The notes below the pieces were generated by a model, which saw only the letters and a list, made by a program, of their open reading frames with translations, searched no databases and was not told the origin of the DNA. A stretch of 63,804 nucleotides of DNA, counting the filler, from Reclinomonas americana ATCC 50394 (lineage: Eukaryota): the NCBI GenBank assembly GCA_048213135.1. It is 6 parts of 5 records of this genome, joined end to end, with 100 filler letters (N's around TTAATTAATTAA, not from the genome) between each part and the next. Parts side by side here need not be neighbours in the genome. Positions count along the whole stretch, not along the records: positions 1 to 13,617 come from PS015634.1; 5 more parts are not named here. One strand, 5' to 3'. The position numbers and the translations under genes were made by a program. Positions 1-58,689 of this stretch are shown here, in pieces. The stretch's first letter is position 1; every line of letters starts with the position of its first letter.

Positions 1-49
1 ATCGCCTCTCTCTCTATGTACACTCACTTTTATGCTTCCTTCTCGGCAG

Positions 50-3000
50 GTACTGGTGGTGTCCGGGTGGTCCGGTGGCGGCAAGTCCGTACTTCTGCGT
101 CAGCTGACCACTCGCCTGCACCGGCGCGACGACACATTGGTGCTTTCGGCTCGTCTGGCTGGCATTCCTCGCGCTGAAGTGCTGCGCAAACCTGAAGCTC
201 TGCTGCCTCACCTCTTGCGCGAGGCCAACGAAGCGGCAATGGAAGAACGACTTCAAATGACAGAGGACGAGGTGCGTATGTGTGGGTGTATAGGTGTGTA
301 TGTGTGTGTATCTTTACGGAGACTGCATCGTGCAGTTCCGGCGTGTCGGCACAGTCGTACTGGTCCTCGATGGATACGATGAGTGTGGCGAACCACCGGG
401 CAATTTGTATGTCCACCACGAACTCGATGTTGCGACGTGTCACAGACTGTCAGTGAGAGCGCAAGAAAGAGAGCTTAACCTTTCCACGAATGCAGAGATG
501 GCCAAATGTGTTGCTGGTGGTGTCGGTGCGACGCGAGTTCATCAGCCGACTCGGCAACTTGTGGGCCGAGGAGCACTTTGTGCCAGTGGATCCGCGCCTG
601 TCGCGTGCGGCGCGTTTGCAGCAGCCGGAGCGCACGATGGCGCGATGCATGCTGCGCCTGTTTTCGAAGGACGACATTGACCTCTTTCTGCAACAGTTGA
701 GTGTGATTTCGTTTTGTGTAATCTCTTGTGCCTTGGGCTCACACTGCGCTTGTGTGCGCGAGTAGATTTGTGGAGTCACGCGCGGACCACCCGCGTTCGT
801 GGCAGCAACACAAGCAACAGATCGAGCACACGCCTGGGCTGGACGGGCTGGCGTCGTCGGTGAGTCGCTGATTGCTGAAGGAATTCGATGCTCGTCTCGT
901 TTTGTTCGTTGACCTTTGTTTCGCACATGCAGCCACTCATGTTGAACATGATTGTTGTGGTGTCGGAGGATTTGGAAAGGCTGAATCACAGCCACGCTTC
1001 TGCGCCATCTGCGACGCGTGTGACTCGTGCACGTTTGTACGAGGCGTTTGCCAAACACAAGCTGCGATGGGAATTCGAGCATCATCAGGTGCACATTCGA
1101 CAGGTGTGTGGCAGGTATCGCTAATGAGCATCTCATGCGTGGGTACGTTGTGAAATGACCACTCGGCCCGCAGCTGTATGGCGACGGGGAGTCGGAAGAG
1201 GACTTTTGCCTTCGTGTGTGGGACTTTTGCTCGGATCTCGCCGGCGAAATGATGCAGCACTCACTGACATCTGTGCGGCAGGGCGAGGTACGTTGAACGG
1301 CAACCCTATTCTCTCACTGCGTTTATCGTCTCACGCTCTCGCTGGTTTTCTGCAGCGCGTCATTGCGGAGCGACACGTGTGGGACAAGTGGTTCGACCGT
1401 GATGATCCGTCGCAGAATTCGCTTGTGCGCGCTGTTGCGTCATTTTGCACTGTGCTTGCTGCGCCATCGACGCCGCTGTGTTCATTTGCAAGAGCTGGCG
1501 CAGGCGTTGCTAAAGTGGAGCCGACTGGGGGTATCGCAACAACGCGTGGAGTTTGTGCACAAGTCTGTGCTGGAGTACTTTGCTGCGCAATCGTGGCTCG
1601 CAGATGTGCATGTGTTGGCCAACGAGGAGGCCGATTGGGAGGTGGGCGACTGCTGTGTGCACTGAGCCTTGTGGCTCGCGCAATTTTTTTTATTGATTCG
1701 CTGGTTGTCGTTGTCGCCGGTAGGATCGAGTCGACAGACTGTGCTCCAGCTTCAGTGGCCAGCGAACATTGCTTACCTCGGACGAAGTGAGTGTACACAG
1801 TACGAGATGTCAGCATGTACTTTATGCTCACTCCGCTGCCGTTCATGCAGGGTCTCAGCTCCGTTCTGTCATTCGTCGCCGAGCAAGTACGAGCCGAGCC
1901 GTCGCTGCATGACGTGTTGTGGAATGCCACTGTGGCGTCACGGAAAGATGAGAGGATGGCGGCGCTGTCATCGAGTGCAGCCAGTGCGCTGTGCCTCGCG
2001 GAGGTGCCGTTCAGTGGGCGAGATCTGTCGGGTGTACGAGTGAGGGGAGCAGATCTGCGCGATGCGGTGATGCACCGAACGGTGTGGCGAGGAGCGGATT
2101 TGCGAGGGGCGAACCTGTGCATGGCGTTTGCGCGTGAGGCTGACTTTCGGGATGCGGATGTGACGAGTGTGATGTGGCCGCGGAAGCCGTTCAAGGGGCA
2201 CAGCGATACCGTGACCTCCATAGCTGTCACCCCCGACGGGCAGCACATTGTCAGTGGGGGTGACGACGAAAAGGTGCGTGTGTGGTCTCTGGCGACTGGC
2301 GCCGAAGTGCTAAAGTTTGCTGGACATGATGCCGGCGTGTCGTCTGTTACCGTCACTCCCGACGGCAAGCACGTNNNNNNNNNNNNNNNNNNNNNNNNNN
2401 NNNNNNNNNNNNNNNNNNNNNNNNNNNNNNNNNNNNNNNNNNNNNNNNNNNNNNNNNNNNNNNNNNNNNNNNNNNNNNNNNNNNNNNNNNNNNNNNNNNN
2501 NNNNNNNNNNNNNNNNNNNNNNNNNNNNNNNNNNNNNNNNNNNNNNNNNNNNNNNNNNNNNNNNNNNNNNNNNNNNNNNNNNNNNNNNNNNNNNNNNNNN
2601 NNNNNNNNNNNNNNNNNNNNNNNNNNNNNNNNNNNNNNNNNNNNNNNNNNNNNNNNNNNNNNNNNNNNNNNNNNNNNNNNNNNNNNNNNNNNNNNNNNNN
2701 NNNNNNNNNNNNNNNNNNNNNNNNNNNNNNNNNNNNNNNNNNNNNNNNNNNNNNNNNNNNNNNNNNNNNNNNNNNNNNNNNNNNNNNNNNNNNNNNNNNN
2801 NNNNNNNNNNNNNNNNNNNNNNNNNNNNNNNNNNNNNNNNNNNNNNNNNNNNNNNNNNNNNNNNNNNNNNNNNNNNNNNNNNNNNNNNNNNNNNNNNNNN
2901 NNNNNNNNNNNNNNNNNNNNNNNNNNNNNNNNNNNNNNNNNNNNNNNNNNNNNNNNNNNNNNNNNNNNNNNNNNNNNNNNNNNNNNNNNNNNNNNNNNNN

Positions 3001-3762
3001 NNNNNNNNNNNNNNNNNNNNNNNNNNNNNNNNNNNNNNNNNNNNNNNNNNNNNNNNNNNNNNNNNNNNNNNNNNNNNNNNNNNNNNNNNNNNNNNNNNNN
3101 NNNNNNNNNNNNNNNNNNNNNNNNNNNNNNNNNNNNNNNNNNNNNNNNNNNNNNNNNNNNNNNNNNNNNNNNNNNNNNNNNNNNNNNNNNNNNNNNNNNN
3201 NNNNNNNNNNNNNNNNNNNNNNNNNNNNNNNNNNNNNNNNNNNNNNNNNNNNNNNNNNNNNNNNNNNNNNNNNNNNNNNNNNNNNNNNNNNNNNNNNNNN
3301 NNNNNNNNNNNNNNNNNNNNNNNNNNNNNNNNNNNNNNNNNNNNNNNNNNNNNNNNNNNNNNNNNNNNNNNTCCCGACAGCCAGCTAATTGTCAGCGGAA
3401 GCTTGGACAACACGGTACGTGTGTGGTCACTGGCAAGTGGCGAAGAGGTGCGACGACTGCTGGGTCACACGAATATGGTGCGGTCTGTCGCCGTTGCTCC
3501 CAACGGCCAGCTTGTGGTGAGCGGAAGTGAGGACAAGACGGTGCGCGTGTGGTCGCTGGCGAGCGGCGAAGAAGTGCACCGGTTGGAGGGGCACACTGCG
3601 CCGATAAAGTCTGTTGCCATTACCACCGATGGTGAACGCATCGTATGCGGCAGTGGCAAGGCGATGTGGGTGTGGTCTCTGGCTGCAGCCGGGAGTGGCG
3701 GACTGCTCGTTCGTGTCATCGGGTCGTTTTTGCCTGACCTGCAGGGCGCGCTGTACAAGTAA
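50..3762 (+). CDS. STAND NTPase with NACHT + pentapeptide repeats + WD40 repeats (NWD/NLR-like); multi-exon, 5' end outside window, interrupted by N-gap 2375-3371
   Basis: Walker A SGWSGGGKS (exon from 50), Walker B VVLVLDGYDE, PLMLNMI, winged-helix motif EFVHKSVLEYFAA, pentapeptide run FSGRDLSGVRVRGADLRDAV..GADLRGANL..EADFRDADV, then GH-x-V-x-SVAVTPDG WD repeats to TAA at 3760-3762. GT-AG introns restore one reading frame. Confidence 0.9.
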
Positions 3763-3946
3763 TGTTGAAATGAACGCGACCATGCTGTTGCCAATGTGCG
3801 CGTCGTTCTCTGACATGAGCGCGTGTTCAGTATCCCTTCTTCATTCTCTGACACTGGCTCACCGATTTCGCGGCTTCGAGAACACACTCGGTGACGTTCG
3901 ATGACGTGTCCTCTGGGTGCATTGCAGCCTGATCGCTGCGCCAAGA

Positions 3947-5799
3947 ATGGCCGATAATCCCACGTTGCGCGCCTCATTCTCTATCCCTCTCTTCGGCATC
4001 TCTTCCAGTCCCTCCTCTCGCCACAAACGCCTCACCGAGTTCACATACTCCTGGCAAGCCGACAAGGAGATTGTGTTCTCGGTCGCCATCACACCCGACG
4101 GCCTACACATTGTCAGCGGCGGCGATGACAAGGTGGTGCGCCTGTGGCTGCTGAAGACTGGTCGGCGAGTGCGCCAGTACAAGGGCCACACTGGCCCTGT
4201 GTTCTGTGTCGCTGTCACCCCGGATGGGCAGCACATTGTGAGCAGCGGCGACGAGAGCACCATTCGCGTGTGGTCGCTGGCCACAGGCCAACAGGTGCGG
4301 CAGCTGAGTGGACACGGAGGAGGAGTTCCGTCGATCGCGATCACCCCCGATGGACGGCGCGTGGTGACCGCGGGCTACAACATGTTCGTGGGCGTGTGGT
4401 CGCTGGCGACTGGGAAGTGCGAGCACCGATTGCAGGGCATCTACGAAGGGGTCGATGCGGTCGCCGCGTCGCCAGTCGTCGACGAGGATGAGGGGCAGTA
4501 TGTGATCGGCGTCAGCCAAACCGGTTCCATGTGCCTGTGGTCGCTGGGGAACGGCGAGGAGCCGCTGTTGGAGCACTTTGGTTCGGTTAAATGCGCCGCC
4601 TTCAGTCCCGATGGCCGGCACGTGGTCGCCGGCGACTATGACGTGGGCGTGTGGTCTCTGGATGACGCCGCGGATGTGGATTCCGACGACGATGAGATGG
4701 GCGACTGGGATCCAAAGTTCGAGACCCAACTCAATTCGGTGAGCGCGCTCGCCGTCACCCCCGACGGCAAACACTTTGTCTACGCCGATAGCGAAGGCGA
4801 CTGCGGTATCTGTTCCATGGCGAATGGCAGAAAGGTACACGAGTGGCATGCGCACGAGGTAATCGTGCAAACGATCGCCGTCTCGCCTTGCGGCAAGTAT
4901 GTCGTGAGTGGCGACGCGCAAGGAGTTATCAGCGTGTGGCAGTGGCGGGAGGAGAACCCCAAGCGCGACGAAGAGGAGATGAAGGCCCTGGGCCTGATGG
5001 CCAGCGATGACGACGACGACGATGACGAGGCAGACGGCAAGGGCAAGAGTGGCAAGAAGGCGGCAATTGCAAGCGAGAAGAGCAACAAGGCAGCAACATC
5101 AGCAGCGCCGGTGGCCGAAGCCAGCAAGAAGAAGAGGCGGAGGAGGAGGAAGAAGAACAGCAATAAGGCAGGGGGCATCGAGGACGATGGAGCAGCGTCG
5201 GCATCATCATCTACAACTGCGACAACCGCGGCTGCACCAGCCAAGGCAGACGACGACGACAAGCTGCATGGCACGAGGGTGGTCGCGTCGAATCCGGCAC
5301 TGCCACCCTTGGAGAGGATGGCAGAGGTGGCGGCATCGTTGGGGATGATTGACGGCGGGCCACTCGGTAAGGCGACTCTCTCTCTGTTATGTGGGCGTGT
5401 ATGTCACTCACTGCTGGCGACACAGACTTCTCGGCATTGTCGGCGGATGCTCTGGCGCAGCTGGTCGCGTCGGTGGAGCCCGACGTGCTGGTGGATTTCA
5501 TCGAGAGCAATGGTCTCGACTCTCTTCTCGGCGACTACAACAACCGTCGGAAGCCGGGTTCCGCGGCCGTCGCGAGTGTCGTCAAGAAGGAGGACGTTGA
5601 CGATGGCGCGGATCCGGAGGATGAAGACGACGACGGGGAAGAGGAAGACGACGATGATGATGATGACGAGTACGCCGACTGCGACGAGTACGACGACGAC
5701 GACGACGACGAGTATGCCGACTTTGACGAGTACGGCGAGTACTATGGTAGCGGGTATGACGACGACGACGAGGACGACGACGACGAGGACGACGACTAG
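3947..5799 (+). CDS. WD40-repeat protein with Lys/Arg-rich linker and very acidic C-terminal tail
   Basis: About 7 WD-like repeats (SVAITPDGLHIVSGGDDKVVRLW etc.). Intron 5367-5425 joins to the D/E/Y-rich exon ending TAG at 5799. Possible in-frame 45-nt intron at 3964-4008. Start codon uncertain. Confidence 0.8.
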
Positions 5800-8665: not shown

Positions 8666-11231
8666 TCCCTGTCGCACTGTGCTGTCTCCGGCAACTCACT
8701 GCTGGTATTCACACTGCGTTTTCAGCTGTCTTTGCGCTCGTGTGCTCTCCAATACTTCTGCAATGCCTTGTCTTGTCTCCCTCTCCGTCGTCTGTCTCTC
8801 TCTCTCTCTCTCTCTCGCTCTCTCCTGTGGTTTCCCTTCGTCCTTGTCTCCTTTCCTCTCCTCTCGTCTCTCCGTCATCTCCTTCACGCTCTCACCCTCC
8901 TTTTGCCCCGCAGGTACCAATGGGGCATCATGTTTCTGTGTGGCTCCACATGGGCCGTGGACGCGGCGGTGCGTTTCCGCTCCCACTGCCCTCGCGCTGG
9001 TGCTGCTCTTGTTTGCTGACGAGTTTGTGATGAGCAGGAGGTGCTGCTCGTCTCCTTTCTCATGCCCATATTGCGCGACGAATGGAACATTTCGCGTGTG
9101 CAGGAGAGCTTGCTGGGAGGTGCGCGTCGCTTCCAATCACCTCGCGCGCGCGCTCTCTCTCATCGTAAAACACAGGACTGACCTTCTTCGGCATGATGAT
9201 CGGGGCGCTGACGTGGGGCATTGTCGGCGACAAGTTGCGCCGCCTCTCACCGCGGTGATTTCCTGTTGCCCGCTGCATCTCTCACCTTTGTGTTTCGCCA
9301 CAGATACGGCCGGAGACGTGGCTCACTGTGTGTGACTGCATTCACCGGTCTTTTCGGCTTTGTGAGCGCCTTCTCCCCCAATATCTGGGTGCTCATGGTA
9401 ATCGCAAGTCGCCCTCACACATCACGCATGCCTGCACAGTGGCTGACACGTGTCGTCCTCGCATTAGTTGTTTCGACTCCTGCTGGGCATCGGACTCGGC
9501 GGTGCGCCAGTCACCTTCAATTTGTTTGCAGAAATGGTGCCGGCATCCGCACGTGGCAAGACGCTGGTGGTGGTTGAGGGCGGCTTCTGGACGCTCGGCT
9601 CTGTGTTCATTGCGGGTCTTGCCTGGCTCGTGATACCACCACTCGGGTTGCGTGCGCTCGTCGCTGCGAGGGTGAGAGATAATACTCGTCCCTCACGTTT
9701 ATTTTCAGGTGGCGGTGGTTCCTCGCCCTCAGCGCCGTTCCCACCATTCTCACTTTCGTGCTCTACGTGTTCTTCATGGTGAGCGACTTGGTCAGCGTGG
9801 GCACCCGAAGAAAAGCAGCACCTAACACCTTGCTGTCATGCAGCCCGAATCACCTCGCTATCTATTAATCAGTGGTCGACATGCGGAAGCCGAGCGCGTG
9901 CTACGAGTGCGTTTTTCTCTCTCTCTCTCTCTCGCTTTGCGTGTGTTTGTGCCTCAGGATTTTTTATTCTCGCTGCATCCGTGTTCTCACTTCGTTTTCA
10001 CACAAATTTCTCTCTGCTCCCTGTTCCCTGCCAATCCTTCTCCCTTCCGTAGTGCCCTTCCATTTTTTCTCGATAGGCCTTTTTGTGTGCACCGTTCCCC
10101 TCCCTGGCTCCTCCCCTGCTCCTCTCCCTGCTCACCCGTCTGTCGCTGCTCTTCCCCAAGACATTCATCTCTCTGTCCACCCTTCTTCCTCTGTCCTCGC
10201 TCTTCTTTACCCATCTCTCTGTCCACCCCTCCCCCTCTGCCCCTCCCCTCGCCATGCTCCTCTCCCTGTCCACCCTTTTTTTCGTCTCCCCTCCCTTCTG
10301 TGCTCGTCTCCCTGCCCACTCTTGTCCCGCTGCGCTACCCCAATGCATCCGTTCCCTGTACACGCTTTTCTCTTCGCCCTTCCCCCTCTCTTCCCTCCGC
10401 TCTTCCCCCTCTCTTCCCTTCCCCTTCTATGCCCCTCTCCCTGTCCTTCCTCTTCCATGCCCCTTCCCCCTGCCCACCTCCCCTCCTCGACAGCGCGTGG
10501 GTCGCGTCAATGGACGACCCCTGGACGAAAACGTCGGCCTCATACCCTACACACCAAGCACTGAGGACGTGCGCGGCCGCGCTTCACTTCTCGAACTCTT
10601 CTCCCCCGAATACAGGCTCATCACGCTTCTGCTGTGGGTCATCTGGGTTTGTGCTCTCCCGCCTGCGCCTCATGAAAGCGACTCTTCTCACGATTCGTGC
10701 AGGCCGCGGACACGCTGTCGTACTACGGTGTCAGTCTGATCACGCCGTCGTACTTTGCCACCATCTCCTCCAGCATCTACCTCAGTGTGTTTCTGACTGC
10801 GATTGCTCAATTGCCGGCGCTCCTCGTCGTGTTCTTGATTGTGGATAAGTTTGGAAGGTGCGTGGGATTACCAACAAAAGACTCTGCTTGTGCACGTGCT
10901 CACCTCACCACATTCGACTTGCAGGCGGTGGACCCTGGCCCTCATGTTCTTCCTGTGCGGCGTGAGCATGGGTTTCCTGCTGATGGAACACATGGCACCG
11001 ACCTGGTTCCTCATCCTCATGGCCGTTATCGCTCGCGGTACTGGCCAGGGCGCCTTCACCACCACGTTGCGTCCTAGCGTATGGGGGTGGGCTGGTGGAA
11101 GTATGCCGACTCACGAGTCCAAACACAGCTACGTCTACACACCGGAGGTGTACGCCACGGTGGTGCGCAGCACGGGTCTCGGATCTGCCAGCGCAGTCTC
11201 TCGTCTCTTTGGAATCGCCACGTCGTTCATT
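7184..11231 (+). CDS. MFS transporter, SV2/SVOP (synaptic vesicle 2-related) family; multi-exon, 3' end in gap
   Basis: Spliced product contains LGWGRYQWGIMFLCGSTWAVDAA, GIVGDKYGRR, FRLLLGIGLGG, FAEMVP..RG, LGWRW, PESPRYL, DKFGRR and YVYTPEVYATVVRSTGLG. Confidence 0.9.
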
Positions 11232-11916
11232 NNNNNNNNNNNNNNNNNNNNNNNNNNNNNNNNNNNNNNNNNNNNNNNNNNNNNNNNNNNNNNNNNNNNN
11301 NNNNNNNNNNNNNNNNNNNNNNNNNNNNNNNNNNNNNNNNNNNNNNNNNNNNNNNNNNNNNNNNNNNNNNNNNNNNNNNNNNNNNNNNNNNNNNNNNNNN
11401 NNNNNNNNNNNNNNNNNNNNNNNNNNNNNNNNNNNNNNNNNNNNNNNNNNNNNNNNNNNNNNNNNNNNNNNNNNNNNNNNNNNNNNNNNNNNNNNNNNNN
11501 NNNNNNNNNNNNNNNNNNNNNNNNNNNNNNNNNNNNNNNNNNNNNNNNNNNNNNNNNNNNNNNNNNNNNNNNNNNNNNNNNNNNNNNNNNNNNNNNNNNN
11601 NNNNNNNNNNNNNNNNNNNNNNNNNNNNNNNNNNNNNNNNNNNNNNNNNNNNNNNNNNNNNNNNNNNNNNNNNNNNNNNNNNNNNNNNNNNNNNNNNNNN
11701 NNNNNNNNNNNNNNNNNNNNNNNNNNNNNNNNNNNNNNNNNNNNNNNNNNNNNNNNNNNNNNNNNNNNNNNNNNNNNNNNNNNNNNNNNNNNNNNNNNNN
11801 NNNNNNNNNNNNNNNNNNNNNNNNNNNNNNNNNNNNNNNNNNNNNNNNNNNNNNNNNNNNNNNNNNNNNNNNNNNNNNNNNNNNNNNNNNNNNNNNNNNN
11901 NNNNNNNNNNNNNNNN

Positions 11917-12445
11917 AATTGCTGATCGGCGGGCAGGCGCGCAGGATCGAGAAATGCAATCAGTTGTCGTCGATGAGCAAGCAGCTTGCGCGATCGGTAC
12001 GGCTCGTGTCGACCATAGAAGCCACCATTGATTACTGTGCTCACAATGAGCGAGTGAGTGAGTGTGAGTGTGTGCAGAGAGTCTCACCGGGAATCATTGC
12101 TTGCTCCAAGAATGCCTCTCCGTTGCGATAGTCGACAAAGGCACCGGCGAGAGACGAGGTTCCCGGTCGCTGAAGAGCCTTGACCTCCGATCCAAGCAGT
12201 GAGAGTCCACACTGCACGCACACACACACGCGTGTGGCACAGTCAGACAAGTCTCTCTCTCTCTCTCTCGCGTGCATGCATACACACACCTCAATGCTGT
12301 CCATGATGTGATATCGTTCAGCGACGCGCGGGTTGCGCACGAGCATGCGTCGCTCGTCGGAAGTCGATGTCGACAGCGCAGCGCTTTGTTGCCATGGTCG
12401 TCGAACAGTGGAGAGAAGTGCGAGTGCGCGTGAGCGAAGAAACAT
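11917..12445 (-). CDS. smpB: SsrA(tmRNA)-binding protein SmpB with N-terminal mitochondrial-type targeting presequence; exons 12445-12290, 12211-12088, 12034-<11917; C-terminus in gap
   Basis: Spliced: MFLRSRALALLSTVRRPWQQSAALSTS..LVRNPRVAERYHIMDSIE|CGLSLLGSEVKALQ..SLAGAFVDYRNGEAFLEQAMIP|VINGGFYGRHEPYRSRKLLAHRRQL. This follows the SmpB consensus N-x-x-A-x-x-x-Y-x-I..E-x-G-x-x-L-x-G-x-EVK, NGE and H-x-P-x-R-x-RKLL-x-H. GT-AG introns at 12289-12212 and 12087-12035. Confidence 0.9.
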
Positions 12446-12512
12446 TTCCGAATCAACAAGCAGGAGGACAGTCGTGAAGGCAACAGTGTTGGTGTTTACT
12501 GAAGTCTTCCTA

Positions 12513-30900: not shown

Positions 30901-32715
30901 TCCGTTGCAAGAGAGTGTGCCGCCGATGCCGCCGTCCACACTCATCTCCCCGCTCGTCAAGTTTGGTGCGGTTCCGCCGCCGCAGACGGGTGCTGGAATG
31001 GTGCGTGTTTTGAGGGGGAAGGTGGGAGGAGAGTGGAGATGTGAGCGATGCTGAGGCGGTAGTGCAGATTAGAAAAGTGCAACCCATGTCCAGCAACGAG
31101 TGAACGAGAGAGAGAGAGAGAGGAGAGTGATTGCACAACACAGACTAGCGAGCAGGCAGTGCAGTTGAAGTGATACAGAGGAGACGAGAGTGATCAAGCA
31201 GGCCTTGCAGTGATTAGCGATTCAGAACCAGAAGGTGCTTGAGTGGAGAGAGCAGAGAAGAGCTTTGCAGAGTCAGCCGAGAGGGATTGGAACACGCTGG
31301 TCGCCGACGACGCTGATGCGCGAGCAGAGAAAGAGCGATGCAAAGGCAGCCGTGAGTGATCGAGGGATGCAGATGAGCCAGCACGCCTTGCAGTGATCAG
31401 CGATTCGGAACCAGAGAGGATGGAGCCGAGAGAAAGAGAGAGAGAGAGAGAGGAGAGTGGGACGACGCAGGGGTACAAGAGTGATCGAGCAAACAGTAAT
31501 GGATGACCCAAGAGACACTTCAGGTCGAGATTACATGCAGAGATAACTATGAGCCAGCGATGAGCGAAACTGAGCCTTTGATGTCCAATGCAATGCCGCA
31601 CGAGCACATCGTGCGCTACGCAGACGTAAGCTGTCTTCTGTCATCTCATTCCGGTCCTCCCCCTTCCCCTTCCCCCTTTTCTCACCCTTCCCCTTCTCTC
31701 GCCAGGGAACCCCACTTCTCGCCAAGCGCGACATCCTCTCGTCGATGCCCAACCCGCCCGCCTTTATCAGCCAGCACCCGACGCAGTGGACCGAGGGTCA
31801 GACACTGAAGTTGCTGCTGGCGCTCGAGGAGTACGGCCGCGACTGGAGCAAGGTGGCCGAGGTGGTCGGCCGCACCGAGGAGGAGTGCATCTTCCACTTT
31901 ATTCGCCTGCCGATCGAGGATCCCACGCTGGAGAAGGAGCTGCAGGAGCGCATGAATCAGTACGGTAAGGCGATTGCACGAATCTCTTGCTGATGATGGG
32001 AGGCACTCATTGACCTTTGTTGCTGGCGCTTCAATAGGTTCCGCGTCGGGAGCGGCTGGCGCCAATGGCGACAGCAGCAACCCCGTGCTGCCGTTTGCCG
32101 ACACGGCCAATCCCGTCATGGCGCTGGTCACCTTCCTCAGCTCGGTTGATCAGCACGTGGCCGGTGCCGCTGCGCAAGCTGCCATTCGCGCCGTGGAGAG
32201 CGGTGGTGGCGAATCGTCATCGTCGTCATCTGCGCCGTCGAGCATCGAGGACATGGACATGCGTACTGCGGCGGCTGCCGCCCTCGGAGCCGCCGCCGCC
32301 AAGGCCAAGCGCGTGGTGGAGGCCGAGGAAGCCGGTCTCAAGGCACTGATTGCTTCAGTGGTCCAAAAGCAGATGCGCAAGGTGGAGGTGAAGCTGCGTG
32401 AGCTGGAGCGCGTACAGAACCTTGCCGTGCAGGAGCGACAGCAGCTGCGCACGATGCGCACCTCGCTAATCGCCGAGAGGATGAGTCTCAACGCACAGCG
32501 CCTGTCGCTGGAGCAGGCCGTGGCCCAGCTGCGTCAGCAACAACAGTCGGCTTCCGCTGCCCTCCCACCACCACCACCTCCGCCGCCGCCACCACCGCCA
32601 CCAGCCGCCCCTGCCGAGGTATGCCTCCGAGAGAAGAATACTCGAACACAGTCGCTCATTTCTTGTCTCCTTGCAGGTGTTGTCGATGGATGTCGACGCC
32701 TCTGCGCACCGATGA
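26654..32715 (+). CDS. SMARCC: SWI/SNF subunit SMARCC/SWI3 with N-terminal MarR-like/BRCT/chromo module, SWIRM, SANT and coiled coil
   Basis: [57 protein letters not shown] ([37 protein letters not shown]), SANT ([27 protein letters not shown]), [16 protein letters not shown] and QMRKVEVKL. Confidence 0.95.
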
Positions 32716-32835
32716 GGGAGCAGCAGGCCGAGTTGCGAGGAGCATGAATGAGAAGCTTGAAGGAGGAGGAGAAGAAGAAGGAGAAACACAATGAAATCCG
32801 ACAGTCGTGACAGCTTCATTCGTGTCGGAAATCAA

Positions 32836-58236: not shown

Positions 58237-58689
58237 AGAGAGNNNNNNNNNNNNNNNNNNNNNNNNNNNNNNNNNNNNNNNNNNNNTTAATTAATTAANN
58301 NNNNNNNNNNNNNNNNNNNNNNNNNNNNNNNNNNNNNNNNNNTTGTCGTTGTTGTTGATATTGTTCTTGTTCGTCTTCTTCTTCTTCTTCTTCTTCTTCT
58401 TTTCTTCTTCTTTTCTTCTTCTTCTTCTTCTTCTTTTCCTCCTCCTCCGTCTTTTTCTTCTCCATTTTCTTGTTTTTTGTTGTTGTTGTTGTTGTTGTCG
58501 TTGCTGTTGTTGTTTTTCTTGTTGTTGTTCCTCTTCTTCTTCTTCCTCTTCTTTTTGTTCTTCTTCTTCTTCTTCTTGTGTTGTTGTTGTTGTTGTCGTT
58601 GTTGTTCTTGCTGCTGCTGCTGCTGCTGTTGTCGTCGTCCTTGTTGTTGCTCACTGTCTCTCTCTCTCCTTCTTCCCCTCTTTCTCCAG

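Follow-up and report, generated by a model that had tools for sequence, protein, structure and literature searches.

Most mitochondria, as well as the plastids of land plants, have lost the bacterial type of ribosome rescue. Organellar tmRNA genes are frequently missing from annotations and difficult to detect. With each additional eukaryote shown to retain SmpB, another organelle still encoding tmRNA is marked, and an SmpB gene is a cheap pointer for seeking ssrA in the organelle genomes of such an organism. Here, we ask whether a candidate smpB, located in a window of 63,804 nucleotides (the whole stretch of DNA analyzed), genuinely belongs to a eukaryotic nuclear genome, and in which organelle its product might act.

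Gene structure

The candidate gene is located on the minus strand with its ATG at 12445; it comprises three exons, and the coordinates 11917..12445 proved to be exact. Exon 1 (12290..12445, 52 codons) encodes a leader (residues 1-33) followed by the start of the SmpB fold (residues 34-52), which includes the invariant N38 and E52. Exon 2 (12088..12211, 124 nt) carries the SmpB core with G-S-E-V-K, R-x-G and G-E-A-F-L...I-P, and the visible 118 nt of exon 3 (11917..12034) encode H-E-P-x-R-x-R-K-L-L and the start of the next loop, before the exon is cut by an assembly gap. The exons are separated by two GT..AG introns on the same strand. Intron 1 (12212..12289, 78 nt, phase 0) is rich in (GT)n and (GA)n; being in frame and free of stop codons, it could be taken as coding by a gene caller. 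Intron 2 (12035..12087) has a length of 53 nt and is in phase 1. The initial annotation had named the motifs E-CGL-L-GSEVK, NGE and HEP-R-RKLL-H, all of which are present in the spliced three-exon product.

The ATG at 12445 is the first one in frame, with none further upstream before the stop codon at 12719-12721. On the minus strand, a spacer of 67 nt (12446..12512) extends from the stop codon of a WD40 gene (12513-12515) to the SmpB ATG, and the SmpB promoter and 5′ UTR must be located within this spacer or inside the WD40 gene. Such a short distance between two genes on the same strand implies either very compact UTRs or their co-transcription.

At the other end, exon 3 runs into 685 Ns (11232..11916), and the C-terminal part of the protein is hidden in this gap, as had been noted at the outset. 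For positions 90-149 of our SmpB profile (described below), no piece of the window matched with an E below 0.5; the back half of SmpB, with its final β-strands and basic C-terminal tail, should therefore lie in the gap. A multi-exon transporter-like gene on the plus strand (9826-11231), whose exons are our own reading and which gave no Pfam match at the thresholds used, enters the same gap from the other side, so that the gap must hold the 3′ ends of two converging genes.

Relationship to bacterial SmpB

Profile searches bore out the assignment to the SmpB family. The read-through piece, which spans exons 1 and 2 with intron 1 retained, matched PF01668 with 31.4 bits (E 2.1e-7; residues 77-122, profile positions 17-61), above the Pfam cut-off of 27 bits, with the match falling on exon 2. 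The frame of exon 3 matched positions 60-85 of the same profile with 13.7 bits; this second match is collinear and starts where the exon 2 match ends. The top NCBIfam matches were the smpB equivalogs TIGR00086 and PRK05422 (35.8 and 36 bits), which is far under the full-length cut-offs of 119.1 and 130 bits, respectively, because only one exon of a partial gene was submitted. In a PDB search, SmpB chains accounted for 15 of the 17 sequences at E ≤ 1 (best E 2.9e-4).

In addition, we used a profile of our own (length 149), constructed from 93 bacterial SmpBs cut from retrieved loci. The spliced product reached 70.9 bits in one domain, with residues 34-121 aligned to profile positions 3-89 and the front ~60% of SmpB visible. 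Lower scores were obtained for the read-through piece with intron 1 retained (38.0 bits), for exon 2 (35.0 bits), for exon 3 (12.0 bits; alone, it aligns to profile positions 70-90) and for exon 1 (1.2 bits). When intron 1 is read through, the profile match splits in two pieces, and its removal brings back the bacterial spacing between N38 and G54. Splicing of intron 2 shifts the frame, and I92-P93 and R107 then fall in one gapless stretch aligned to the bacterial profile. The alignment of the spliced product contains one insertion of a single residue (Q66) and no indel at either exon junction, and both introns can therefore be placed to the base by homology. Across all 1661 ORF pieces of the window, a six-frame scan with this profile scored only the SmpB exons, the next best piece having an E of 0.58.

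At the level of single residues, 20 near-invariant columns show at least 90% conservation among 88 distinct bacterial SmpBs; the protein retains the conserved residue in 16 of them and differs in the remaining four (A41V, S64A, N89Q and L113A). The position of N89 is occupied by N in 82/84 alphaproteobacterial and Patescibacteria sequences and by Q here. R39, found in 29 of the 31 alphaproteobacteria, is replaced by P, and the N-K/R-K-A-R motif reads N-P-R-V-A. The profile match stops at residue 121, and the last 11 visible residues are unaligned.

Searches against sequence collections returned few matches. The 134-residue read-through piece gave no scored match at E ≤ 0.01 in a homologous-protein search, and its residues 40-134 gave none at E ≤ 10. 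Against 1.84 billion protein representatives, the same piece obtained three matches, namely two spurious repeat proteins and, as the best one (35 bits), a bacterial SmpB fragment. Exon 2 is 60% identical to a bacterial SmpB fragment across 41 residues and 45-63% identical to 60 bacterial SmpB loci, mostly from Patescibacteria MAGs, the latter range being in part a product of the search itself, whose patterns had been derived from exon 2 and the bacterial fragment. When metagenomes were scanned with the exon 1-2 piece, 458 stretches fitted the patterns and none was a relative; the exon 3 piece yielded four loci, two of which are ordinary bacterial SmpBs and two not SmpB.

Genomic setting

The N-free stretch 11917-13617 carries both the SmpB gene and the intronless WD40 gene (12516-13466, minus strand). 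Beyond it, the plus strand carries the chromo and helicase exons of a CHD1 gene (about 14600-17473), which is interrupted by eight introns or more, several of them ~50-76 nt in length. The C-terminal HTH domain of CHD1 follows past a gap (17648-17794) at 17795-18547 on the minus strand; as this is the strand opposite to the other CHD1 exons, the contig 17795-19561 is probably inverted. The inferred CHD1 introns (15176-17359) start with GTGAGT, GTGTGT or GTGCGT, i.e. with G at +3, a possible clue to the lineage. An SWI3-like gene with Myb and SWIRM-associated domains was found at 31574-32744. The non-N GC content is 56%.

Two further genes, both on the plus strand, are a STAND-NTPase/pentapeptide/WD40 gene (2-3759) and a WD40 gene (3905-5000). 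Together with the gene at 12516-13466, they form a set of three paralogous WD40 genes with very regular repeats, which in the first gene stand behind a STAND/AAA NTPase and pentapeptide repeats in an NLR-type-like arrangement. The product of 12516-13466 shares 48% identity over 245 residues with the WD40 part of an NB-ARC protein encoded on a plasmid of Acaryochloris marina. An exact counterpart of the WD40 and WD40-like ORF products was not present in the protein collection searched. The window also contains five identical joints of 100 nt (13618-13717, 23394-23493, 43699-43798, 51059-51158 and 58243-58342), each composed of 44 N, TTAATTAATTAA with stops in all six frames, and another 44 N, which looks like an artificial linker by which scaffolds were strung together into a pseudomolecule; a literature search for it gave no lead. 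Other gaps in the window have estimated sizes of 20-997 N.

That the gene is nucleus-encoded and spliced, with its introns speaking against contamination, was confirmed by the two GT..AG introns and the eukaryotic genes alongside. A bacterial smpB of a contaminant or endosymbiont, assembled into a eukaryotic scaffold, could explain why exon 2 is 45-63% identical to 60 bacterial SmpB loci, a set chosen by patterns from exon 2 and the bacterial fragment. However, identity of the whole core to any bacterial SmpB is 42-45% at best, the reading frame is broken by two introns, the second of which shifts the frame, and a 33-residue leader is present. Besides that, the WD40 gene is only 67 nt away without intervening Ns, and GC content as well as repeat style agree with the rest of the scaffold. 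We consider this origin hardly conceivable, and the gene structure, together with the intron-bearing eukaryotic genes nearby, rules it out. A different alternative accepts the eukaryotic gene and takes it for a decaying or truncated pseudogene no longer used in any organelle, or for an SmpB fold recruited to some other RNA-binding task. Here, the 3′ part within the gap, the changes at near-invariant residues (including N89 and the N-P-R-V-A motif), the very long branch in the SmpB tree and the unaligned end beyond residue 121 would all fit. Against this, all three exons are open, their exact GT..AG borders restore the bacterial spacing with zero indels at the junctions, and four fifths of the near-invariant columns are intact. 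Moreover, the mitochondrial SmpB of Andalucia is, compared by eye, equally divergent at N89 and L113, and the unaligned end corresponds to a variable loop. A relic or a recruited fold is therefore improbable in our view. Judged by sequence and setting, the gene descends from a bacterial smpB and genuinely belongs to the nucleus of a eukaryote, and the encoded protein is divergent.

N-terminal leader and target organelle

Position 3 of the bacterial profile falls on residue 34, which gives the protein ~31 additional residues ahead of the bacterial SmpB start. The leader (residues 1-33) contains 6 R, 0 K, 6 S, 5 L, 4 A and 3 T. It had been described as about 30 residues rich in R, S, L and A with no acidic residue in the first 29, and D30 is indeed the first acidic one. 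Arginines are found at positions 4, 6, 15 and 16. A single hydrophobic run of eight residues (7-14, mean Kyte-Doolittle 2.2) is followed by R-R-P-W, in which R-P-W at 16-18 presumably resembles an R-3 processing site. By its composition, we read the leader as an import presequence fitting either a mitochondrion or a primary plastid. As a signal peptide it would be poor, being too short and having no small-residue cleavage region as in the bipartite signal of complex plastids, which makes a red-derived complex plastid unlikely. Of the mitochondrial-type presequence proposed in the initial annotation, the N-terminal import-type extension stands; the mitochondrion as its target is not established by the leader, which fits a primary-plastid transit peptide too.

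Next, we compared the protein with a mitochondrial and with bacterial SmpBs. About 31 of 85 positions (~36%) agree with the mitochondrial SmpB of Andalucia godoyi in a comparison by eye, by which the latter also departs from the near-invariant N89 and L113. Three states common to both proteins (V36, C53 and S56) each occur in 0-1 of 31 alphaproteobacterial and 0-1 of 53 Patescibacteria sequences and may also occur in cyanobacterial, plastid-type or oomycete SmpBs. The evidence from these common states leans towards the mitochondrial type. In a FastTree phylogeny of 89 rows, based on the N-terminal 100 residues and including 31 alphaproteobacterial and 57 other bacterial rows, the protein has a branch of 1.88 changes per column; it shows no supported tie to the 31 alphaproteobacterial rows in this tree and is located outside the main Patescibacteria clade of 46 rows. 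BLASTP of the spliced core gave best scores of 68.9 bits for alphaproteobacteria, 65.5 for Deferribacterales, and 62.4 each for gammaproteobacterial MAGs and Patescibacteria, values that do not separate the groups, and identity to these bacterial SmpBs, alphaproteobacterial and others, is 40-45%. Cyanobacterial SmpBs were found neither among the 60 genome loci nor among the best 60 of 70 smpB matches in the plasmid collection. The window contains no tmRNA and no other Rfam or ARAGORN match, and a tmRNA gene is not expected in nuclear DNA.

We favour the mitochondrion as the place where SmpB would act, at about even chances, and count towards it that basic residues start right at the N-terminus of the leader, along with the likeness of R-P-W to an R-3 site and the states common with Andalucia. 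Arginines at positions such as 4 and 6 are more typical of mitochondrial presequences, while Ser/Thr/Arg/Ala-rich leaders with almost no acidic residues also fit algal transit peptides. The same gene and mechanism could thus serve a plastid: the leader would be a simple stromal transit peptide in an alga with a primary plastid, e.g. a chlorophyte or prasinophyte, and the partner a plastid tmRNA with a tag frame. This reading, which we regard as possible but rather doubtful, draws on several observations. The leader is Ser/Thr/Arg/Ala-rich with almost no acidic residues, as in a transit peptide of the green-algal type. We take the GTG(A/T/C)G starts of the introns, together with an abundance of low-complexity coding sequence and (GT)n repeats, to be weakly reminiscent of green algae. 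The three WD40 genes resemble cyanobacterial WD40 repeats, with the 48% identity to the Acaryochloris plasmid gene mentioned above, and plastid tmRNA with a nuclear SmpB is, going by extracts of the tmRNA literature, the commoner eukaryotic case. The best named matches of the CHD1 exon include streptophytes and red algae, in a search limited to proteins of 309-2000 residues in which long chlorophyte CHD1s could be missed. This search gave 699 matches without a close relative among them, the best having 65% identity over 39% of the query; those with names came from streptophytes, red algae, animals, Cyanophora and Arcella, and none from fungi, which makes a fungal source unlikely. However, in a FastTree CHD1 phylogeny (91 rows, with 30 of 120 proteins left out for a matched region of less than 430 residues), the CHD1 of the window has a long branch and falls outside the rows of red algae (27), streptophytes (16) and Cyanophora. 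It is outside the animal clade as well and pairs with a metagenome protein (56% over 499 columns, SH-like 95), a pairing flagged as a long-branch join. Furthermore, none of the 316 ORFs scanned, a small sample, contains a domain for photosynthesis or plastid function, the arginines at 4 and 6 are more mitochondrial-like, and no signal peptide is found, with red-derived complex plastids being unlikely.

Proposed function and implications

Going by what the gene encodes, the organism probably still rescues stalled ribosomes in the bacterial way, in its mitochondrion or plastid. The SmpB precursor would be made in the cytosol and imported into the organelle, where the leader would be cut off. According to extracts of published accounts of trans-translation, mature SmpB would then bind the tRNA-like domain of an organelle-encoded tmRNA (ssrA), in place of the missing anticodon arm, and enhance alanylation of the tmRNA. 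In the same accounts, as far as extracted, alanyl-tmRNA-SmpB enters together with EF-Tu the empty A site, here of organellar ribosomes that would be stalled on broken mRNAs, and the basic C-terminal tail of SmpB, here expected in the gap, would probe the vacant mRNA channel. If the organelle is the mitochondrion, the partner would probably be a reduced mitochondrial tmRNA. An extract of PMC11915505 describes mitochondrial tmRNA as lacking a tag frame and as occurring alongside nuclear SmpB, and rescue would then proceed without the classical degradation tag.

Whether the gene extends the known range of the system depends on the lineage. We think it unlikely, though worth stating, that it represents the nuclear half of a mitochondrial tmRNA-SmpB system in a lineage without a record of it, i.e. 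outside jakobids, oomycetes, Palpitomonas, Ancoracysta/Provora and vannellids. If this were true, the lineage would be another independent survivor of ancestral bacterial trans-translation, with an unannotated ssrA predicted in its mtDNA, and the map of independent trans-translation losses would change slightly. Should the organism be an alga whose plastid carries ssrA, the finding would be a routine one.

Comparison with known SmpB proteins

SmpB targeted to mitochondria, together with ssrA in the mtDNA, is on record for Andalucia, oomycetes, Palpitomonas, Ancoracysta and vannellids (Gray et al. 2020, Table S3B, PMC7050145). Mitochondrion-targeted examples are Andalucia godoyi ANDGO_03389 and the proteins of Phytophthora infestans, Albugo laibachii, Saprolegnia parasitica, Palpitomonas bilix, Ancoracysta twista and Vannella spp. 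(PMC7050145; extracts of Hudson et al. 2014, PMC4131195). The initial annotation had given jakobids and oomycetes as the notable mitochondrial cases; both are on record, but its list was incomplete, as Palpitomonas, Ancoracysta and vannellid amoebae belong to it as well (PMC7050145). On the plastid side, extracts of Hudson et al. 2014 (PMC4131195) list targeted SmpBs for Thalassiosira, Phaeodactylum, Nannochloropsis, Guillardia, Ectocarpus, Aureococcus and Cyanidioschyzon and report that algal plastid SmpBs group with cyanobacteria, and an extract of PMC12574857 adds plastid-targeted SmpB in pedinophytes. The 2025 tmRNA database holds 416 unique tmRNA sequences from plastids versus 73 from mitochondria, according to the part of PMC11915505 that gives these counts. 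Within the extent of these sources, plastids are served by nuclear SmpB genes at least as widely as mitochondria are.

With bacterial SmpB (PF01668, TIGR00086/PRK05422; 1zc8_K, 1k8h_A and 1p6v_A), the protein shares the same fold signature over profile positions 3-89, including the invariant N38, E52, G54, L57, E61-V62-K63, R67, G69, G83, I92 and L112 and the near-invariant R109. It is unlike its bacterial counterparts in its spliceosomal introns and leader, in an identity of 40-45% at best and in four altered near-invariant columns, with the back half and tail located in the gap. Like mitochondrion-targeted SmpBs, it is encoded by a nuclear gene of bacterial smpB descent and combines a short basic N-terminal leader with a divergent core. 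The gene has two introns, whereas none is listed for the SmpB gene of Andalucia, where introns occur in 12% of 864 genes, and its scaffold is intron-rich in contrast to the intron-poor oomycetes and Andalucia, which speaks against an origin in either. It likewise resembles the algal plastid-targeted SmpBs, which are products of nuclear smpB genes with an N-terminal targeting extension and whose partner RNA is left in the organelle genome. However, the majority of the listed proteins depend on a signal peptide in addition to a transit peptide, a combination not evident here. Nucleus-encoded organellar SmpB is thus already known for both mitochondria and plastids, and the gene described here adds what appears to be an unannotated case.
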